This document shows positions 1 through 7,574 of a stretch of 54,564 nt of DNA, piece by piece. The notes beneath the pieces were generated by a model. It ran no database searches, was not told the DNA's origin, and saw only the letters and a list, made by a program, of their open reading frames with translations. Position 1 is the stretch's first letter, and every line of letters starts with the position of its first letter. This DNA comes from Patescibacteria group bacterium. GTDB taxonomy: Bacteria; Patescibacteriota; Minisyncoccia; Phycocordibacterales; Phycocordibacteraceae. A program made the translations under genes and the position numbers. The DNA lies in contig JBBTSV010000002.1 in the NCBI GenBank assembly GCA_038064595.1, positions 1-54,564 on the forward strand, read 5' to 3'.

Positions 1-52
1 ATCATTAATTCGGGTTTCGTGTAAAATGGGTTCTAGCGTGCTTTAATAGAGA

Positions 53-209
53 CTCCAGAATCAAAACAAGGTCAGATTCGCCGTCAGAAAATTTCGCGGC
101 GCGGAGCGCCGCGTAGGGGGGATGCGCATTTCCGCGCGCTTCGCGCGCGTGGAGGAGGTTCAGAAATACCAGATCCGAAAATTTTTGGAGGAAGGATTTT
201 TTGGAGGGG
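53..209. repeat. Left inverted repeat (IRL); reverse complement of 3285..3435
   Basis: By direct comparison, 53..155 is a perfect reverse complement of 3333..3435 (103 bp). Homology continues imperfectly, with a 6-nt indel, to 209 / 3285. Confidence 0.9.
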
Positions 210-304
210 AATGCGAATACAGAATACATCCGTAGTGTGCTTGCCCCTCCCACCCGTGCGCGCACCAGCCCCTTCGCTGGCGGGTCTGAAACCAGCGAAG
301 CTCC

Positions 305-1093
305 CTAAATGGAACTAGCGCTTGCCCATCTCGTCTCGAAATTAGCCGTTATCGTTTTTCTAATGTCTTTTCCGTAGCGATCTTGAACAACGACTATTAA
401 AGATTCTCTGTCACCAAGGTCTTTTATCCCATGTCCGACAATCAGAAATTGGTCCGTTGAGATGATGTACCGGTCGTGTAAGTCGTTGTGCGAAGTGACT
501 CGCATTTCAACTTTTTTGGAATGCTCTTTTTTAAAGTCAGTTAGGGCTCTGCTCAAGGTCGCCTGTTTCTCGCCCCCACCTACGCGAGCTGTCAAAAATC
601 GGATTTTCTTGTGGTGCTTCGCAAATGCCTCCAACACCTCTAGGGTTCTTAATCCATAGTAAGGGTCGCAAATTAACAGCTCTCCTTTAGGGAGTGTTCT
701 TATGAGCGACTCTAGCGTCCTTCGTGCGGTACGAGGTTTGTTGGGGTTCACATAAAGGACATTGAGTGGTTCGTCCTTCTTCAATCCCTTAAAATAAGCC
801 TCGCCTGGGCTACTGATTTTTAATCCGTTGCCGTTAGGACTTTTGATTATTTTTTTCCCAATAACCGGCGCAAACGCCTTCTGAAGGCGTTTTATGGTGA
901 TTGGTATGTCGAGAAACTCTTGCAAGATCGTTTGAATCTCCTCATAAGTTAAGTAGTCGACTCCGAACTCGTCCTTGCTCACGAACAAACACCACAGCCC
1001 CGCATCGAGAGATGCTTTGGTAAACCCGTAAACCGAAGGCAAGTCAGCCCTGCTCACTGCCGACATTCTCCATTTTTTCTTGTCTCCCTTCAT
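305..1093 (-). CDS. Hypothetical protein with an N-terminal winged-helix-like region and a C-terminal PLD-superfamily-like (MIT_C-type) domain
   Basis: 262-aa ORF with an ATG start. The C-terminal pattern LICDPYY...(about 75 aa)...LHDRYIISTD...GHGIKDLG resembles the DPY / HDR signature of the MIT_C PLD-like fold. It is the last gene of a tightly packed three-gene operon. Confidence 0.7.
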   Translation of the reverse strand: MKGDKKKWRMSAVSRADLPSVYGFTKASLDAGLWCLFVSKDEFGVDYLTYEEIQTILQEFLDIPITIKRLQKAFAPVIGKKIIKSPNGNGLKISSPGEAYFKGLKKDEPLNVLYVNPNKPRTARRTLESLIRTLPKGELLICDPYYGLRTLEVLEAFAKHHKKIRFLTARVGGGEKQATLSRALTDFKKEHSKKVEMRVTSHNDLHDRYIISTDQFLIVGHGIKDLGDRESLIVVVQDRYGKDIRKTITANFETRWASASSI

Positions 1094-1095
1094 GC

Positions 1096-1515
1096 TCAGT
1101 CAAATATGCTCATCCATCCTTGGCGCAAGTGATAGAAACCGTACTTTTTGGAATCTACCCAACCCTGAGTTACCGCCTCATTCGGGTACTTCCCGTTAAA
1201 GGTATATCCCAAAAGGTTCTTGGCTTTCATTTTGTTCCACTTGCTACTAATTACACCCACTTCAATATCGGAACCAGTTTTCCCTTTCGTCATGTGCGCG
1301 AGAAGGAGCGTGAATTTTTTCGGCCCGCTCAACCCTTTTGCATAGATTTTTATAAAGTTTTTCTCATTGAGTCCAAAATCTAGTTTAGTCGGTTGCGATG
1401 ATTTTGTGTCTGTCGTTTTCGCAACTGGCTTGTTTTTACCAGAATTGAACACCGCCCTTTCCAGACGTTCTAGCCGAGTAAGTATGGCCTTTGTAGTTTT
1501 TTCATTCATAAGCAT
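1096..1515 (-). CDS. Hypothetical protein, middle gene of the cassette
   Basis: 139-aa ORF. Its start abuts the stop of the upstream gene (1515/1516) and its stop lies 2 nt from the next start. It has an N-terminal coiled-coil-like LTRLERLERAV, a Lys/Thr-rich linker and a C-terminal globular part. No family was recognised. Confidence 0.6.
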   Translation of the reverse strand: MLMNEKTTKAILTRLERLERAVFNSGKNKPVAKTTDTKSSQPTKLDFGLNEKNFIKIYAKGLSGPKKFTLLLAHMTKGKTGSDIEVGVISSKWNKMKAKNLLGYTFNGKYPNEAVTQGWVDSKKYGFYHLRQGWMSIFD

Positions 1516-1890
1516 CTATTGAACGTAAAGCCAGCGCTTCTTATCTTTAATTCTTCGCAGGTGCCGCTTCCTGACAAGACGCAACGCAGTCGGAGACAAC
1601 GACGTGACGGGATAATGATAGCCCTGCTCGGCCAGGGCATTCTTTATTGCACTCAGCTCGCGCGGCTTCTTGAAGAATCCGCCGTCAATCAAGTCAGTAA
1701 CGAGGCTAATGGGAGTGGGACGCGCTTTATCAGACATCGCCTCCTTTCTCGAACTACGTCCATCCGTCTTAGTAGGAGCAGAACGTGATTTGCCGCCTTG
1801 TAGTTGTGAGACAAGATCGGCGACTTCCTTTGGCGTACCCTCCACGGTTATCTTTACGCCTTCTTTCGTTGTAATGTTAGCTTTTGCCAT
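1516..1890 (-). CDS. Hypothetical protein, first gene of the cassette, with a possible C-terminal winged-helix
   Basis: 124-aa ORF with an ATG start, transcribed divergently from the recombinase across a 57-bp spacer. It has a small N-terminal beta-rich segment, a basic disordered linker and a basic C-terminal tail (LRLVRKRHLRRIKDKKRW). Confidence 0.6.
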   Translation of the reverse strand: MAKANITTKEGVKITVEGTPKEVADLVSQLQGGKSRSAPTKTDGRSSRKEAMSDKARPTPISLVTDLIDGGFFKKPRELSAIKNALAEQGYHYPVTSLSPTALRLVRKRHLRRIKDKKRWLYVQ

Positions 1891-1947
1891 ATTCCATTAT
1901 TCAGATGTATGCTATCATAAGGGATAACTGAATACAAAGTCAAGCCT

Positions 1948-3495
1948 ATGCTCTACTTCCTTTACGCCCGCAAAAGCACCGATGTCGAGGATAAGCAGGT
2001 GCTGTCTATCGAAGCCCAGCTCGTCGAGCTCCGCGCGCTTGCTAAGCGCGAACAGCTCAACATCGTTGAGGTATTCGTGGAGAAGAAATCCGCAAAGATG
2101 CCGGGTCGCCCTATTTTCGGCGATATGATGGCGCGAATACAAAAGGGCGAAGCGCAGGGCATTATCTGTTGGAAGATTGACCGGCTCGCGCGTAATCCGG
2201 TAGACGGCGGGCAGATTCAGTGGCTCCTGCAACAGGGTGTGATTCGCCATATTCAGACGCACGACCGCTCGCACTTCCCAAACGACAATGTGCTGATGAT
2301 GTCGGTGGAGCTCGGTATGGCGAATGAGTACATCCGGCAATTGAGCGCGAATACTTCTCGCGGGCTCAGGCAGAAAGCGCGACAAGGTATCTATCCCGGC
2401 CTCGCGCCGTTCGGATATTTGAACGACCCGAGTACAAAGACTATCAAGACGCATCGTAAAAATGCGAAGTTAATCCGAGAAATTTTTGAACGGTATGCGA
2501 CCGGCAAGGATACTTTAGACATTCTCGCCACGATGCTTGAGAAGGCGGGCGTTCTGTCTAAAGGCAATCGTCGCATTCATATCTCGCAAATTTCGTTCTT
2601 TCTCCAAAATCCGTTCTACTACGGACACTTCCGCTACGCGGGCGAAGTGTACGAAGGCACGCACGAGCCGCTCGTTTCTAAAGAGCTTTTTGATAAGGCG
2701 AATGTCGTCCTGCATAGTCGCGGTCGTGTACCAGATATCAAGGATGATCCGAGCCCGTATTGTGGCCTGCTCCGCTGCTCCTGCGGTATGAGCATCACCG
2801 CCGAGAAGAAAGAGAAACACCAGAAGAACGGCAATATTCACCTCTATACCTACTACCGCTGTACGCGAAAATCTAAGGCGGTTAAATGCGTCGAAGCGCC
2901 GATACGAAGCGAATTGTTGGATTCTCAACTCTCGGCGCTTCTTGGTGAATACACGATGCCCGAGGAGTGGGTATCGCCGTTGTCTGCCCTTCTTGATACA
3001 GAAGCCGCCAACGCCTCTAAAACGGCAGCAGGTGCCGTTGCCGACCTGCGGGACAAGGTTACGGACATCTCGCGCACGCATGCTCGGCTAACCGACCTCT
3101 ATGTCGCCGAGGATTTGGAGCGCGAGGAGTACTTGTCCCGCCGCCGTTCGCTTATGAGCGAGCGCCGGACGATTGAGGAACAAATCGTCCGCCTTGAACG
3201 AACCCCTGCCGCGTGGGTTGAACCGGTCAGGAATTGGATAGAAGACGCTTCGCGTCTTGATGAAATCGCCCATTCTGAAAACTACCCCTCCAAAAAATCC
3301 TCCCTCCAAAAAATTTTCGGATTGAACCTCTCCCTCCACGCGCGCGAAGCGCGCGGAAATGCGCATCCCCCCTACGCGGCGCTCCGCGCCGCGAAATTTT
3401 CTGACGGCGAATCTGACCTTGTTTTGATTCTGGAGCCGAGAGTCGGGATTGAACCGACGACCTGCGCCTTACCATGGCGCTGCTCTACCAACTGA
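1948..3495 (+). CDS. Large serine recombinase
   Basis: The N-terminal resolvase catalytic motif is YARKSTDVEDKQVLSIEAQ. A recombinase domain follows, then a Cys-rich zinc-ribbon (CGLLRCSCG...YYRCTRK...KC) and a coiled-coil tail. The ORF has no stop until 3495, so it runs through IRR and antisense into tRNA-Thr. The true C-terminus is uncertain. Confidence 0.9.
   Translation: MLYFLYARKSTDVEDKQVLSIEAQLVELRALAKREQLNIVEVFVEKKSAKMPGRPIFGDMMARIQKGEAQGIICWKIDRLARNPVDGGQIQWLLQQGVIRHIQTHDRSHFPNDNVLMMSVELGMANEYIRQLSANTSRGLRQKARQGIYPGLAPFGYLNDPSTKTIKTHRKNAKLIREIFERYATGKDTLDILATMLEKAGVLSKGNRRIHISQISFFLQNPFYYGHFRYAGEVYEGTHEPLVSKELFDKANVVLHSRGRVPDIKDDPSPYCGLLRCSCGMSITAEKKEKHQKNGNIHLYTYYRCTRKSKAVKCVEAPIRSELLDSQLSALLGEYTMPEEWVSPLSALLDTEAANASKTAAGAVADLRDKVTDISRTHARLTDLYVAEDLEREEYLSRRRSLMSERRTIEEQIVRLERTPAAWVEPVRNWIEDASRLDEIAHSENYPSKKSSLQKIFGLNLSLHAREARGNAHPPYAALRAAKFSDGESDLVLILEPRVGIEPTTCALPWRCSTN
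3285..3435. repeat. Right inverted repeat (IRR); reverse complement of 53..209
   Basis: Same comparison as for IRL. It lies inside the 3' end of the recombinase ORF and ends 5 nt inside tRNA-Thr. Confidence 0.9.
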
Positions 3496-3506
3496 GCTAT
3501 CTCGGC
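3431..3506 (-). tRNA. tRNA-Thr (anticodon GGT), CCA encoded
   Basis: Manual cloverleaf: GCCGAGA/TCTCGGC acceptor, GCTC/GAGC D stem, GCGCC-ATGGTAA-GGCGC anticodon arm, GTCGG-TTCAATC-CCGAC T arm, discriminator T, then CCA. Confidence 0.9.
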
Positions 3507-3554: not shown

Positions 3555-3908
3555 ATGGAAGGACTCGAGCACTACGAGAAGGAGGAGCGCCCCTGGGGCG
3601 CCTTTGAACGCTTCACGCTCAATCAAGAGACGACGGTAAAGATAATCACCGTAAAGGAGGGTGAGGCCTTCAGCCTCCAGACCCATGAGCACCGCGATGA
3701 GTACTGGCGCGTTCTCTCTGGGGTGGGTACTGTGCGCATTGGCGACACTGATCACGAGGCACACGCGGGGGACAGTTTCTTTGTGCCGCGGCACACCGAG
3801 CACCGCGTCACGGGCGGCGAGGGCGGGATCACCTTTCTCGAAATCGCCTTTGGCACCTTCGACGAGAGCGACATCGAGCGCCTCGACGACCGCTACGGCC
3901 GGACCTAA
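3555..3908 (+). CDS. Cupin-domain protein (mannose-6-phosphate isomerase type II C-terminal-like)
   Basis: Cupin motifs are SLQTHEHRDEYWRVLSG and FFVPRHTEHR. The start was moved to ATG 3555 because the longer ORF (3474) overlaps the tRNA. Confidence 0.8.
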   Translation: MEGLEHYEKEERPWGAFERFTLNQETTVKIITVKEGEAFSLQTHEHRDEYWRVLSGVGTVRIGDTDHEAHAGDSFFVPRHTEHRVTGGEGGITFLEIAFGTFDESDIERLDDRYGRT

Positions 3909-3940: not shown

Positions 3941-3947
3941 TGCTTTG

Positions 3948-4022
3948 CGCGGTCGATGGGATTTGAACCCACGATCTCGTCCGTGACAGGGACGCGCTTT
4001 GAACCAACTAAGCTACGACCGC
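3948..4022 (-). tRNA. tRNA-Asp (anticodon GTC)
   Basis: Manual cloverleaf: GCGGTCG/CGACCGC acceptor, GCTT/AAGC D stem, CGTCC-CTGTCAC-GGACG anticodon arm, GTGGG-TTCAAAT-CCCAT T arm, discriminator G. CCA is not encoded. Confidence 0.9.
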
Positions 4023-4694
4023 ATTCTTCTTCGTGGCTAAAAATCGCTCAAAGACGACTTTCTTCCTTACCAGCAGTAATTCCGAAGAATCCTCCCGATT
4101 ATACATCAATTTATATAATTTCAAAGAATCTCGCGTCCCGAGCTGCAACCGAGAATAGTTATTTTTTGAGTCATAAATTGATCCTCCGTCGATACCCTGC
4201 TGTCGCAGTTTCTTCAGAAGAAGAACGAGAAAACGCCTCGAACAAGAGGTGAACGCCGTCAAGAGCGTCAAGCTGGGACTTTTCCTCTCCTTTTTCGTAA
4301 GGCCGAACCACACATTCCCATCTCCATCGAAATACCCTCGAACAAAGTGTGAGAAATACTTTTGGGGAACATGTGGTACCGCCAGACTTTTTGTTTTATT
4401 TGGCATGAATCCCAATTTCTCCAAATCCGTACACATCTCTTTATTTCCTATTTGAAGACGGTAGATAATCTTTTCATTTCCCTTCCTCGATCGAACACTT
4501 ATTTTATGCTCAGACCGTATCGCTTTTTTAATCTCGATAAGAATATGTTCATCAGTAATTTGAATATTCCAAAAATGAGCACCCCTCTTATTAAGAGTTA
4601 GATATCCGTCTGCGGCGAAAAATCCAAGAATGTAGGCCATTTCGGGCGACCATGTTTTAAAGAAATCTGCGTTCACCGCGCGATGCATCGGCAT
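4008..4694 (-). CDS. LAGLIDADG-family homing endonuclease, double-motif and free-standing
   Basis: Two LAGLIDADG-type motifs are present: YILGFFAADGY and FVRGYFDGDGNV. The gene is markedly A+T-rich relative to its neighbours. Its last 15 nt, including the stop, overlap the 5' end of tRNA-Asp. Confidence 0.85.
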   Translation of the reverse strand: MPMHRAVNADFFKTWSPEMAYILGFFAADGYLTLNKRGAHFWNIQITDEHILIEIKKAIRSEHKISVRSRKGNEKIIYRLQIGNKEMCTDLEKLGFMPNKTKSLAVPHVPQKYFSHFVRGYFDGDGNVWFGLTKKERKSPSLTLLTAFTSCSRRFLVLLLKKLRQQGIDGGSIYDSKNNYSRLQLGTRDSLKLYKLMYNREDSSELLLVRKKVVFERFLATKKNAVVA

Positions 4695-4780: not shown

Positions 4781-6733
4781 TCACTTTTGTGAGGCGGTGG
4801 CGAAATACTGTTTCGCGAGTGCGGCCATATCGCTTGCCTGTGCGGTATCGCCGAGACGAGCGTAGGCAGTACTCGCCTGAAGGTAGACATTGGCAACCTG
4901 CTCCCACACCACCTTTTTGTACGGATTCACCCAATATGGGTTCGCATAGAGCTCTGGGGGGTAGGAGGGGAGGATTCTTTTCGCAATAGCGATGGCTTTT
5001 TCATACGCTTTCTGCTGGACATAGAGCTGCATGAGCTGCTCGTATTCATATATCCCCTCTACAGGGTTAAAAGTGATCGTTTTGAGAAGTGCGGCTTCAT
5101 ACTGTTCTTCGTCACCCAGCTCTCTGTAAATGAGAGCTTCCCAGCTGTAGAAGAGCGGCTTCTTGGGCTTCTTTTCGATACTGCGGTGTATCTCGTCTAA
5201 CGCCTCTTCGAGCAATGCTCTTCTCTTGGTTGGATCGTTAGTCAGATGTGAGAGCCGCTCAAGTGTGGTGGCCGCATGAAAGTGTGGAGAAAAATCAAAA
5301 TCGCCAAGCCGCGTTGCGGTTCTAAATTCAGCGAGCGCCGCATCATACTTTTGATTGCTCAAGTAGGCCAGGCCCATTTCAAGATGGTACGAATCATACC
5401 AATACGAGATACTGAAACAGCTTATGGCTGCGGCGCTCCCGAGCACGAGTATGGCGAGGCCCCTTCCCCATCGATGCACCCTTTCTGGTGTCACTATGCC
5501 CCGCTGTCCGTAGACTGCGCCTACTATAAGGAAGAAGAGGAGCGGGTTTGCCGCGTATCCCCAGTTAACCTCCATACAGAGCGCCAGAATTGTCGCCACA
5601 GCTCCTATGAAGACGGCACTGCGCGCAACCTCCTCTCCCGAGGAGTCGTCCTGGCGCGCAGAGCGATACAGAGACCAGACAATCACGAAGACGAGGAGAG
5701 TGAAGAGAAGCCCGCCAAGAAGGCCGATCTCGGCAAAGAGCTTAAGAAATTCATTGTGCGGGCTTGACGCATAATACGCAGGCGTATCTTTATACCGTTT
5801 GACTGCCTCGCCATACGTCCGGAGTCCAACCCCCATAAGAGGGTTGTGTCGTATGATGGTCAACGCGTCATCAAAATAATGGAGTCGCGCGGTGAGCGCA
5901 TTCGCCTCGAGCGTTTCTCCGGTAAACACCCCCACCTCTTGACCCTGTGTCGCCGCTCGCTGCTGCGTGAGCGCCAATAGACCAGCAACCAGAAGCGCGC
6001 TGCAGGCAAGAAGAGCGAGTATACGTACGGCGACCACTCTCGTTCGCGCCAACGCCACCACCGGTCGAAAGAACAGCGCCGCCCCGAGGACAAGCGCGAT
6101 GAGGAGGCTGAGCCAGCTCCCCCGAGAGAACGTCAGTACAAAAGCGGCGCTCACCAGCGTGCCGCATACACCCCACCCTATCGCGCTGACGCGCGTTTTG
6201 GCTGTGGCGGTACGCGCATACAACAGCACGAGTGGGAGCAATAAAAACCCAGCAAAAGCGTTGTGGTCGTTGAAGGTAGAAGCGAGTCGAAGATATCCGA
6301 AGTTATTGGTGAAAAAGAGTTCTACGATACCCCAGAGAGCGAGGAGGCCCGCGCTCACCATAGCTACGGCGGTCAGAAACTCGAAGCGAGGGCGTGAGTC
6401 AACGACGAGGCGCGCAGAGATAAACGCTACATAATACCCAACCCAGTGCAGTACATTTATGCCCGTCGTCGTCCGATCTGCTGAAGGGATAAACGACAGC
6501 GCCATGGCGCCAAGGAGGAGGAGAAACAGCACACTGACTGGTTCACATAGTGCACGTTGAAATGCCTCACGACGGTGCCTCCAGGCAAAATACGCAAACG
6601 GTCCTGATAAGAAAAAGAGGAACAGTTGCGCCTCGTACCTCGCTCCCCCGTGATAGAAGGGCACAACAACCAGAAGAAGACCAAGAGCAAGCAATGCAAA
6701 AAAAGAAGGGCGGTCTGCAGCGTTCACGCTCAT
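4781..6733 (-). CDS. O-antigen ligase (Wzy_C)-like polytopic membrane protein fused to C-terminal TPR repeats
   Basis: It has many TM segments and the motif SPHNEFLKLFAEIGLLG typical of O-antigen ligase/polymerase domains. The C-terminal approximately 200 aa are TPR-like. The start was set at ATG 6733; the ORF track begins at 6769. Confidence 0.8.
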   Translation of the reverse strand: MSVNAADRPSFFALLALGLLLVVVPFYHGGARYEAQLFLFFLSGPFAYFAWRHRREAFQRALCEPVSVLFLLLLGAMALSFIPSADRTTTGINVLHWVGYYVAFISARLVVDSRPRFEFLTAVAMVSAGLLALWGIVELFFTNNFGYLRLASTFNDHNAFAGFLLLPLVLLYARTATAKTRVSAIGWGVCGTLVSAAFVLTFSRGSWLSLLIALVLGAALFFRPVVALARTRVVAVRILALLACSALLVAGLLALTQQRAATQGQEVGVFTGETLEANALTARLHYFDDALTIIRHNPLMGVGLRTYGEAVKRYKDTPAYYASSPHNEFLKLFAEIGLLGGLLFTLLVFVIVWSLYRSARQDDSSGEEVARSAVFIGAVATILALCMEVNWGYAANPLLFFLIVGAVYGQRGIVTPERVHRWGRGLAILVLGSAAAISCFSISYWYDSYHLEMGLAYLSNQKYDAALAEFRTATRLGDFDFSPHFHAATTLERLSHLTNDPTKRRALLEEALDEIHRSIEKKPKKPLFYSWEALIYRELGDEEQYEAALLKTITFNPVEGIYEYEQLMQLYVQQKAYEKAIAIAKRILPSYPPELYANPYWVNPYKKVVWEQVANVYLQASTAYARLGDTAQASDMAALAKQYFATASQK

Positions 6734-6779
6734 AAGCCACTCTTTCACGGTGACTCGATAGTAGCACATAAGACAAAAG

Positions 6780-7574
6780 TTACTCCGTCATAAAACGAGT
6801 GAAGAGCCCCCGTCGCAATACCAAACGATACACATACCGCAGAAGAACAAAAGACCCTACGAGATAGAGGAGGGAGAGGGCTGAAGCAATAAGAAAATAG
6901 TACATCGAGAAACTTCCACCGCCCACAATATGTCGCATGCTTTCAAATACATACGTGGTAGGAAGTAGGTACGAAAACGGGTGAATAAAAGCAGGGAGCG
7001 TGCTGATTGGATAAAATACTCCTGAAAAGGGCATGGTGAAAACGGGGAGGGACCATACCAAGATTTCCGCAGCAGGACCCATGCGCAATACCGCTGCCGT
7101 TGCAACGATACCCATCGCCCAACCAAACATACATAAGATAAATGCAAACGGTATGATATATAGACCAAACTGAAACACATCATACGCGAAGAGGAGCGCC
7201 GCAAAAACTGTCATAGTCACGATCGCAAGAATTGTGGTAACGATACTGGTGAGTATCAGTCCCATGCAGTATTCGCCTACCGTAAGCGGTGAAGAGAAAA
7301 GATTAATTAAGTTGCGGGTCCATACATCCTCCAAAAAAGCGTTCGTCATGCTCTGTTGAATACGTGTAAAAAAATTCCAAAATATAACAGCACCAATCAG
7401 TACCCCCAACACGGTGAATGGTGTCCCCCCAAGACTCATCAGGTATTGAGTGATGAGACCCCATATAAAGAGCTCGACGGTAGGCCAGTAAAGTGACGAT
7501 ATAAATCGAGTCTTACTCCGCGATTGCAAATAAAATTGCCTTAAAAAAATGGCGTATACGCGTTTAAGACTCAT
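6780..7574 (-). CDS. ABC-2 type transporter permease (polysaccharide/teichoic-acid exporter-like)
   Basis: A 264-aa protein with about 6 TM segments. Its start overlaps the stop of the upstream ATPase gene by 11 nt. Confidence 0.8.
   Translation of the reverse strand: MSLKRVYAIFLRQFYLQSRSKTRFISSLYWPTVELFIWGLITQYLMSLGGTPFTVLGVLIGAVIFWNFFTRIQQSMTNAFLEDVWTRNLINLFSSPLTVGEYCMGLILTSIVTTILAIVTMTVFAALLFAYDVFQFGLYIIPFAFILCMFGWAMGIVATAAVLRMGPAAEILVWSLPVFTMPFSGVFYPISTLPAFIHPFSYLLPTTYVFESMRHIVGGGSFSMYYFLIASALSLLYLVGSFVLLRYVYRLVLRRGLFTRFMTE

Follow-up and report, generated by a model that had tools for sequence, protein, structure and literature searches.

A three-gene cassette at the left end of a Patescibacteria contig (JBBTSV010000002.1, positions 1 to 54,564; this whole 54,564-nt stretch is referred to as the window) lies within a ~3.4-kb element that encodes a large serine recombinase (LSR) and sits beside a tRNA-Thr gene. 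On balance, the three genes, here called A, B and C, are probably an autoregulated conflict module, acting in anti-phage defence, addiction or both, that travels in the LSR element as interchangeable cargo. The predicted effector is C, which in structural models joins a winged helix to a phospholipase D (PLD)-fold domain of the HDR type. A sequence-only reading of the same DNA had proposed the cassette as a new defence or addiction module; judged by its gene content and by the cargo of sister elements, it is a credible candidate.

All three genes are on the minus strand (A, 1516..1890, 124 residues; B, 1096..1515, 139 residues; C, 305..1093, 262 residues), with 0 nt between the stop of A and the start of B and 2 nt between B and C. 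They are divergent from the LSR gene across a 57-bp spacer (1891-1947) between gene A and the recombinase. In these coordinates, lengths and gaps, and in the divergent layout, the sequence-only reading was accurate. It had also described the cassette as A+T-rich, which holds: G+C content is 46.0%, compared with 54.5% for the whole window and 54.3% for the LSR gene, and is below that of all other 1586-nt stretches sampled from position 3600 to the window end (mean 54.8 ± 3.2, minimum 46.1). Because an independent second assembly from the same groundwater site matches 113..3297 at 99.97% identity, the arrangement is not an accident of assembly. A and B had zero matches in Pfam, PHROGs, NCBIfam and PADLOC, and no cassette gene matched any toxin-antitoxin (TA) family profile.

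Protein C and its HDR-type PLD domain

The AlphaFold2 (AF2) model of C, built on 118 homologs, has a predicted local distance difference test (pLDDT) score of 90.9. It places a winged helix at approximately residues 28-103 (helices 28-43, 50-60 and 67-77, with a beta wing) and, after it, an alpha/beta domain of PLD fold at approximately 110-262. The motifs DPYYG (143-147), LHDRYIIS (205-212) and GHGI (220-223), which the sequence-only reading had picked out, are all there and rank as the family's most conserved positions; D143, G147, H206, D207, R208, G220, G222, G227 and S231 are invariant across the 118 sequences. In the model, D143 comes after strand 138-142 and H206-D207-R208 come before strand 209-211, in agreement with the definition of the PB-PLD1 domain as having an acidic residue after an early strand and HDR before a later strand (PMC12065111). 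C departs from the canonical HxK(x)4D(x)6GSxN motif, reading H206-D-R208...D214...G220-H-G222. Relative to canonical HKD proteins, R stands in place of K and GHGI in place of GSxN, and the H-to-G spacing (+14) is retained.

Fold comparison places C among PLD proteins. Foldseek gave probability 1.0 for matches to Nuc (1byr; target-normalised template-modelling score, TMt, 0.71), NucT, Zucchini, PLD3/4 and SauUSI, and aligned C with the C-terminal domain of MITD1 (4a5z_B; E = 9.1e-7, TMt 0.60, root-mean-square deviation 3.9, 22% identity). The best Pfam match of C is MIT_C, at 17.3 bits and under the 25-bit gathering cut-off; among 26 diverse family members, 13 matched MIT_C at E ≤ 0.1 (best 2.2e-4) and five matched PLDc_2. 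The earlier assignment of the last protein to a MIT_C-type PLD domain is borne out by the AF2 fold, the Foldseek matches (MITD1, Nuc, NucT, SauUSI and Zucchini), the sub-threshold MIT_C match and the invariant HDR. Sequence and profile searches of C against PDB sequences returned nothing real, fold comparison alone being informative, and comparison with BFVD returned only generic PLD folds.

The domain type is not new. Like C, MIT_C (Pfam PF16565, human MITD1) and PB-PLD1 have the PLD fold, an acidic residue after an early strand and HDR in place of HxK; the corresponding motifs of C are DPYYG, HDRY and GHGIKD (extended, GHGIKDLG). Unlike MITD1, NsnC and BrxL, C has a winged helix as its N-terminal domain rather than an MIT, inactive PIN or AAA+/Lon domain. 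The HDR-type, MIT_C-like PB-PLD1 domain is a predicted effector, of unproven activity, in Menshen NsnC and at BrxL C-termini (PMC12065111, 2025).

The sequence-only reading had further stated that the cassette matches no named system, which was too strong. Two hidden Markov models (HMMs) of the PADLOC candidate system PDC-S05, PDLC04869 and PDLC04879, were matched by all 26 diverse members of the C family (best E = 1e-16; 5e-9 for C of the window), in the PLD domain only. NsnC was matched by 12 of the 26 and DrmC by 3, again with matches confined to the PLD part. Full-length agreement with PDC-S05 was not found: in C of the window, the 26 relatives and 10 PLD-only relatives alike, only profile positions ~165-300 of 285-306 aligned. 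One PDC-S05 representative cut the plating of T7, T5 and T4 10- to 1000-fold in Escherichia coli (bioRxiv 10.1101/2024.09.26.614923). PDC-S05 is a single gene, whereas C comes with A in 88% of loci. Nor does the cassette correspond to Menshen NsnABC: the NsnC matches are weak and limited to the PLD part, and the partners A and B match no PADLOC model. Among the top 25 PADLOC neighbour families of C, there was no Menshen NsnA or NsnB and no BREX-specific gene save PglX models, which match the same type IIG enzymes.

When a profile of C was run against 1.84 billion representatives, 206 clusters scored at E ≤ 1e-30 and 1802 scored at E ≤ 1e-3. In some of them the PLD domain follows other N-terminal modules, namely DnaJ-type zinc fingers and pentapeptide repeats. 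Searches of IMG/VR viral contigs, GenBank phages and PLSDB plasmids did not recover the C family, which is therefore not typical phage or plasmid cargo. At three of the compared loci (L numbers denote loci and contigs compared with the window), the C gene is split into two open reading frames (ORFs; L055 7917-8698, L057 3409-4042 and L061 3574-4373); these are apparently frameshifted or decaying copies.

The A+C unit and its candidate operator

We surveyed gene neighbourhoods at 56 loci from species-representative genomes, all of them metagenome-assembled genomes (MAGs), in more than 20 phyla including archaea. In this set, one to three small A-type genes come before C, on its own strand. An A-like gene lies directly upstream of 38 of the 43 full-length (winged-helix) C genes (88%) and of only one of 10 PLD-only relatives, so the functional unit is A+C with 0-2 extra B genes. 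The survey did not bear out the proposed trio as the conserved unit: A+C is joined by 0-2 small genes, and the closest relatives of the cassette have four genes. At roughly 30 loci in many phyla, A+C has no LSR within 8 kb.

The AF2 model of A (pLDDT 76.8) consists of a strand-strand-helix mini-domain (residues 2-31), a disordered basic linker (34-54) and a winged helix (60-123) that resembles Fur, RosR, BlaI/MecI and PadR. A has more than 280 homologs, and ~60% identity persists in MAGs labelled Planctomycetes, Chloroflexi, Alphaproteobacteria and Betaproteobacteria. The A-family profile also matched the Hef/ERCC4 nuclease domain 1j22 marginally (E = 0.0011) around the segment ...LIxxLIDGGFF..., which is probably a local helix-turn similarity. 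B comprises an N-terminal helix (ILTRLERLERAVF), a basic linker and a domain that we call B2-type, for which a fold search gave no assignable fold. The suggestion that all three proteins combine a Lys-rich disordered linker with a winged helix held in part: the A model has both, C has the winged helix and not the linker, and the C-terminal domain of B was placed in no fold.

Close relatives of the cassette with four genes encode A (122-125 residues), B1 (106-108), B2 (145-150) and C. B1 is a paralog of A (hhalign 97.3%, E = 2.5e-11). Iterated HMMs merged A, B1 and B2 as if all were paralogs, but hhalign backs the relationship of A and B1 only and leaves B2 unsupported; common descent of the winged helices of A and C was likewise rejected (hhalign probability 0.3%). 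The window is collinear with the 89%-identical four-gene relative L062 save for an indel of ~343 nt (3n+1) that joins approximately codon 25 of B1 to approximately codon 48 of B2 in frame, so B of the window consists of the B1 N-terminal helix and the B2 domain. Other proteins share this fused architecture at 44-91% identity, and at least one of them (P0399, 58%) belongs to a three-gene cassette, L067; the trio is therefore an established variant. The same proteins weaken the idea that B of the window arose by a recent one-off deletion, and the change may have run in either direction.

Comparison of the window, L062 and L001 gave nonsynonymous divergence (dN) of 0.07-0.18 with saturated synonymous divergence (dS) for A, the B2 part and C; for gene B, dN was 0.16-0.18, again with saturated dS. 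These values indicate purifying selection on the cassette genes.

The spacer holds promoter-like sites and a candidate operator. The sequence-predicted cassette promoter and operator occupy 1890..1943 on the minus strand, with a promoter-like site TTGACT-18-TATGAT (-35 box at 1943-1938, -10 box at 1919-1914). The 7-bp inverted repeat reported earlier, TATTCAG (1898-1904) and CTGAATA (1928-1934), is present; taken alone it is unremarkable, as 8% of shuffles of the 57 bp have an inverted repeat of that length. It is part of a composite 13-nt site, TATTC-NN-TWATYC. Exact copies of this site number only two across the 54.5-kb window, and the two face each other as an inverted pair within the spacer (1890-1902, plus strand; 1922-1934, minus strand). 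The copy at 1922-1934 lies between the -35 and -10 boxes; that at 1890-1902 falls in the 5' leader and reaches the start codon. The same 13-nt sites are overlapped by a promoter-like site on the plus strand (1884-1913) that would serve the LSR.

TATTC...GAATA repeats also occur upstream of A, after a TTGAC-type -35 box, at L001, L007, L008, L010, L019 and L024, and after TTGATT at L006; the candidate operator is conserved also at loci without an LSR. At L004 and L065 the palindrome is a different one (GTAGACC/GGTCTAC), and there the recognition helix differs in A and not in B1 or C. Because the recognition helix of A changes together with the palindrome, A is likely an autorepressor, as judged from only two operator types.

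These features bear on a rival account, in which C is a TrmB- or TrmBL2-like regulator or chromatin protein whose PLD fold serves ligand sensing or oligomerization, with no effector function. A, B and C would then only regulate or compact DNA, for example in LSR expression or element maintenance. The top seven Foldseek matches of full-length C are TrmBL2 chains (5bpi/5bpd; E = 3e-9 to 2e-7; ~280 columns), and archaeal TrmB and TrmBL2 resemble C in having a winged helix followed by a PLD fold. Because TrmBL2 is the top Foldseek match (E = 3e-9), a TrmB-like regulatory role retains some probability. It would also suit the winged helices of A and C, and perhaps of B, and the position of the candidate operator, which spans both divergent promoters, so that the cassette could control the LSR. 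To our knowledge, the HDR domain of MITD1 has no known catalysis. Unlike TrmB, however, C has no long coiled-coil linker and retains the invariant HDR and GxG, and none of the 26 family members matched Pfam TrmB or Regulator_TrmB at E ≤ 0.1. By sequence, C groups instead with the PLD domains of defence models (PDC-S05, NsnC and DrmC). The invariant polar set D...HDR...GxG..D..S resembles a phosphate-handling site, and the PLD domain stays constant behind swapped N-terminal modules. Most A+C loci lack any LSR, and the same slot in sister elements holds defence or TA genes. We consider a purely regulatory role unlikely.

The recombinase element, its ends and its cargo

The LSR gene (1948..3495, plus strand) is an ORF of 515 codons whose product matches the Pfam domains Resolvase (3e-22), Recombinase (6e-15) and Zn_ribbon_recom (3e-5) and PHROG 95 (integrase; 9e-76). 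The tRNA that the sequence-only reading had placed beside the element is tRNA-Thr (GGT) at 3431..3506 on the minus strand, and its 3' end abuts the right arm of the element. Within the element the LSR frame meets no stop codon; it stays open across the right arm with its terminator hairpin and continues antisense into tRNA-Thr. At L001, the LSR likewise reads out of its element, into tRNA-Ser.

A perfect 103-nt inverted repeat (53-155 and 3333-3435, 100%) surrounds the LSR and the cassette. An imperfect extension (178-209 versus 3285-3316, 94% complementary) takes the arms out to ~157 nt, giving a left arm at 53..209 and a right arm at 3285..3435. A minus-strand ORF at the left arm (5..265) is a degenerate copy of the LSR tail. 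In each arm, a hairpin CGCGGCGC-NNN-GCGCCGCG is followed by a T-run. The left-arm core hairpin, CGCGGCGC-GGA-GCGCCGCG at 95-113, is the predicted minus-strand terminator of the cassette, and that of the right arm, at 3375-3393, the predicted terminator of the LSR; the two read as the terminators of two divergent transcription units. Relatives have inverted repeats of their own, perfect over 112 nt at L062 and 38 nt long at L001, beside tRNA-Ser. Together with the independent assembly, these rule out the 103-nt repeat as an assembly artefact. The arms are 100% identical within the element, and arms of the window and L062 are 84-85% identical, compared with 75-77% for coding DNA. Identity that is complete within an element and ~85% between elements, above that of coding DNA, suggests concerted evolution or inversion of the arms.

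The target site can be recognised from both sides. The left flank (1..57, plus strand) lies outside the element, is the outer arm of a ~180-nt hairpin (miniature inverted-repeat transposable element (MITE)-like) repeat ending ...GACTCCA, and marks the target side of the left junction. A 20-mer within it, GGTTCTAGCGTGCTTTAATA (29-48), has exact copies in 39 metagenome stretches, with as many as three in a single 693-kb contig. At L082 the 20-mer and an inverted copy of it, separated by a G+C-rich centre of 76 nt, pair to form the ~180-nt hairpin, which is a MITE-like repeat or a structured RNA. ARAGORN and Rfam did not support the 20-mer as the 3' end of a tRNA or tmRNA; Rfam recognised two tRNAs only in the region and did not recognise the hairpin repeat to the left of the window. 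L082 carries the unoccupied site (6730-6845), comprising the hairpin repeat, a 91-nt palindrome with the same hairpin at its centre and then, directly, an identical tRNA-Thr (GGT). At L096 the same site is filled: the element there has different cargo and an LSR 89% identical to that of the window. Because L082 shows an empty palindromic terminator site beside tRNA-Thr, the arms are best read as attL (left) and attR (right), which would have arisen by recombination between a palindromic end of the element and a bidirectional terminator that was itself palindromic.

Seven sister elements (L076, L077, L087, L096, L097, L105 and L107) have LSRs 69-89% identical to that of the window, the same arms and the same flank motif. 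Their cargo differs: KAP-family NTPases at L076 and L107; an EcoRI-like endonuclease and a D12 methyltransferase at L077; a helix-turn-helix (HTH)-Peptidase_M78 protein and DUF4411 at L096, in the same tRNA-Thr site; a small protein and HTH-M78 at L097; and an AAA_15/AAA_21 ATPase at L087. One cargo among these elements was unrecognised. With KAP NTPases, restriction-modification (R-M) genes, HTH-M78 plus DUF4411 and an AAA ATPase in the same slot, the earlier view of the cassette as cargo of a recombinase element beside a tRNA gene is upheld. At L062 the cassette is 89% identical to that of the window and the adjoining LSR only 70%, which shows that cargo and recombinase are reshuffled. Small serine recombinases have been described as markers of defence systems (PMC13552941). 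The element resembles such recombinase-linked cargo in its serine recombinase, its interchangeable defence or TA cargo and its fixed site by a tRNA gene, with KAP NTPases in both. It differs in its large, 515-residue serine recombinase, its minimal size of 3.4 kb and its occurrence in CPR (candidate phyla radiation)-type groundwater bacteria. Its ends also set it apart from the recombinase-linked islands known, being 100-150-nt inverted repeats derived from a palindromic terminator.

So small an element raises the question of whether the small proteins serve the element rather than the host, as recombination directionality or excision factors or in other steps of the LSR life cycle. The cassette is divergent from the LSR over a shared 57-bp control region, the 3.4-kb element has no other candidate directionality factor, and an LSR lies within a few kb at at least 10 CPR-type loci. 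The distribution of both partners argues otherwise: A+C occurs at the roughly 30 loci, in many phyla, with no LSR within 8 kb; sister elements with LSRs 69-89% identical lack the cassette and carry unrelated cargo; and the family was not found in IMG/VR, GenBank phages or PLSDB. A role as LSR accessory factors is highly improbable.

The wider surroundings of the cassette and its CPR-type relatives include many R-M genes. Directly left of the window, on a contig of the same sample (L085 317-3361), lie genes for an N6_N4-type methyltransferase (266 residues), a 426-residue protein and a D12-type methyltransferase (355 residues), a probable R-M system abutting the element. L067 (918-8470) contains a complete type I R-M system (HsdM, HsdS and HsdR), A-B-C, and a ubiquitin-like (Bub-type) operon of Multi_ubiq with ThiF/DUF6791, with an LSR 2 kb further on; by its gene content it is a compact defence island. 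On L068, the other contig with the C gene of L067, BubE follows the Multi_ubiq/ThiF genes. L004, L065 and L069 adjoin methyltransferases, ResIII or MutH, and other CPR-type loci also adjoin LSRs. On the right of the element in the window, a free-standing LAGLIDADG homing-endonuclease-like ORF (4008-4694, minus strand, 228 residues, 40-44% G+C) overlaps the 5' end of tRNA-Asp (3947-4022, minus strand) by 15 nt.

R-M neighbours are also relevant to a third alternative, in which C is a solitary restriction nuclease, modification-dependent or sequence-directed, like BfiI, NgoAVII or SauUSI. A and B would be its controllers, and C would cleave invader DNA directly rather than act through abortive infection or addiction. 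Foldseek groups the PLD domain of C with SauUSI, Nuc and NucT, C has a predicted DNA-binding winged helix of its own, the cassette lacks a methyltransferase, and R-M genes often adjoin. R-M controller proteins (C-proteins) are small upstream regulators with a palindromic operator, an arrangement that A and its candidate operator resemble. Known PLD restriction enzymes have HxK, however, where C has HDR. A is strictly paired with winged-helix C, genes overlap and as many as three paralogous partners occur, a picture closer to a stoichiometric complex than to a simple regulator. We judge a solitary restriction nuclease to be quite improbable, if less so than an LSR accessory role.

Proposed mechanism and significance

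In the conflict-module reading that we prefer, the A-B-C operon would be driven by one sigma-70-type promoter. A, through its winged helix, would bind both inverted TATTC-NN-TWATYC sites, one on either side of the -10 box, and so repress the operon, and probably also the back-to-back LSR promoter. The winged helix of C would place C on nucleic acid, where its HDR-type PLD domain, probably dimeric as in Nuc, BfiI and Zucchini, would cut phosphodiester bonds. A, with B as an accessory adaptor, would restrain C, and phage infection or loss of the element would release it. This layout resembles type II TA and abortive-infection systems in having a small predicted DNA-binding protein with a disordered segment encoded first, tightly coupled genes and an enzyme-like protein last, as well as a palindromic candidate operator over the promoter and carriage on mobile elements and in defence islands. 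It is unlike type II TA in that the candidate effector is a 262-residue protein with its own winged helix and that there are up to three partner genes.

Several observations weigh against a conflict module. HDR replaces the canonical HxK in C, and we know of no HDR-type (MIT_C-like) PLD domain that has been shown to be catalytic; the domain in MITD1 binds membranes. TrmBL2, the top Foldseek match, is a non-catalytic chromatin protein with a winged helix and a PLD fold. The PDC-S05 representative with a phage phenotype is described as having a Virulence_RhuM domain, which C lacks, and the C family covers only the last ~120 positions of the PDC-S05 profiles. Outside the CPR group, many loci lie among housekeeping genes (seven of nine large neighbours are housekeeping), and ~10% of neighbours within two genes on either side are recognisable defence (R-M-type) genes. 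Neighbour-based enrichment in defence islands is weak there.

The HDR-PLD type of effector domain, recombinase-linked defence cargo and TA-like logic are already known. As far as our searches show, three aspects are new: a winged helix-HDR-PLD protein paired with a dedicated A-type partner, the breadth of A+C in uncultivated lineages, and a minimal LSR shuttle with palindrome-derived ends. A more specific proposal, which we put forward tentatively and hold to be somewhat doubtful, is that A+C, with B optional, is an undescribed two-component anti-phage system in which C would be the first active HDR-type PLD enzyme and which minimal LSR shuttles deliver in CPR bacteria. If this is true, the A+C system would be widespread in uncultivated bacteria and archaea, and an active HDR-PLD domain in C would bear on the function of human MITD1 and of the BrxL C-terminus. 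CPR shuttles would enter a palindromic terminator by tRNA-Thr and swap single defence modules between near-identical elements.

The compact, well-conserved A+C pair offers a handle on the HDR-type PLD domain of MITD1, NsnC and BrxL. It is also a candidate immune module for uncultivated groups, including the CPR/Patescibacteria, whose defence repertoire is poorly characterised. The 3.4-kb LSR element, for which an attachment site can be defined, an empty site exists and the cargo is interchangeable, illustrates a route by which defence genes can pass between elements, and it might yield new serine integrases whose sites are known.

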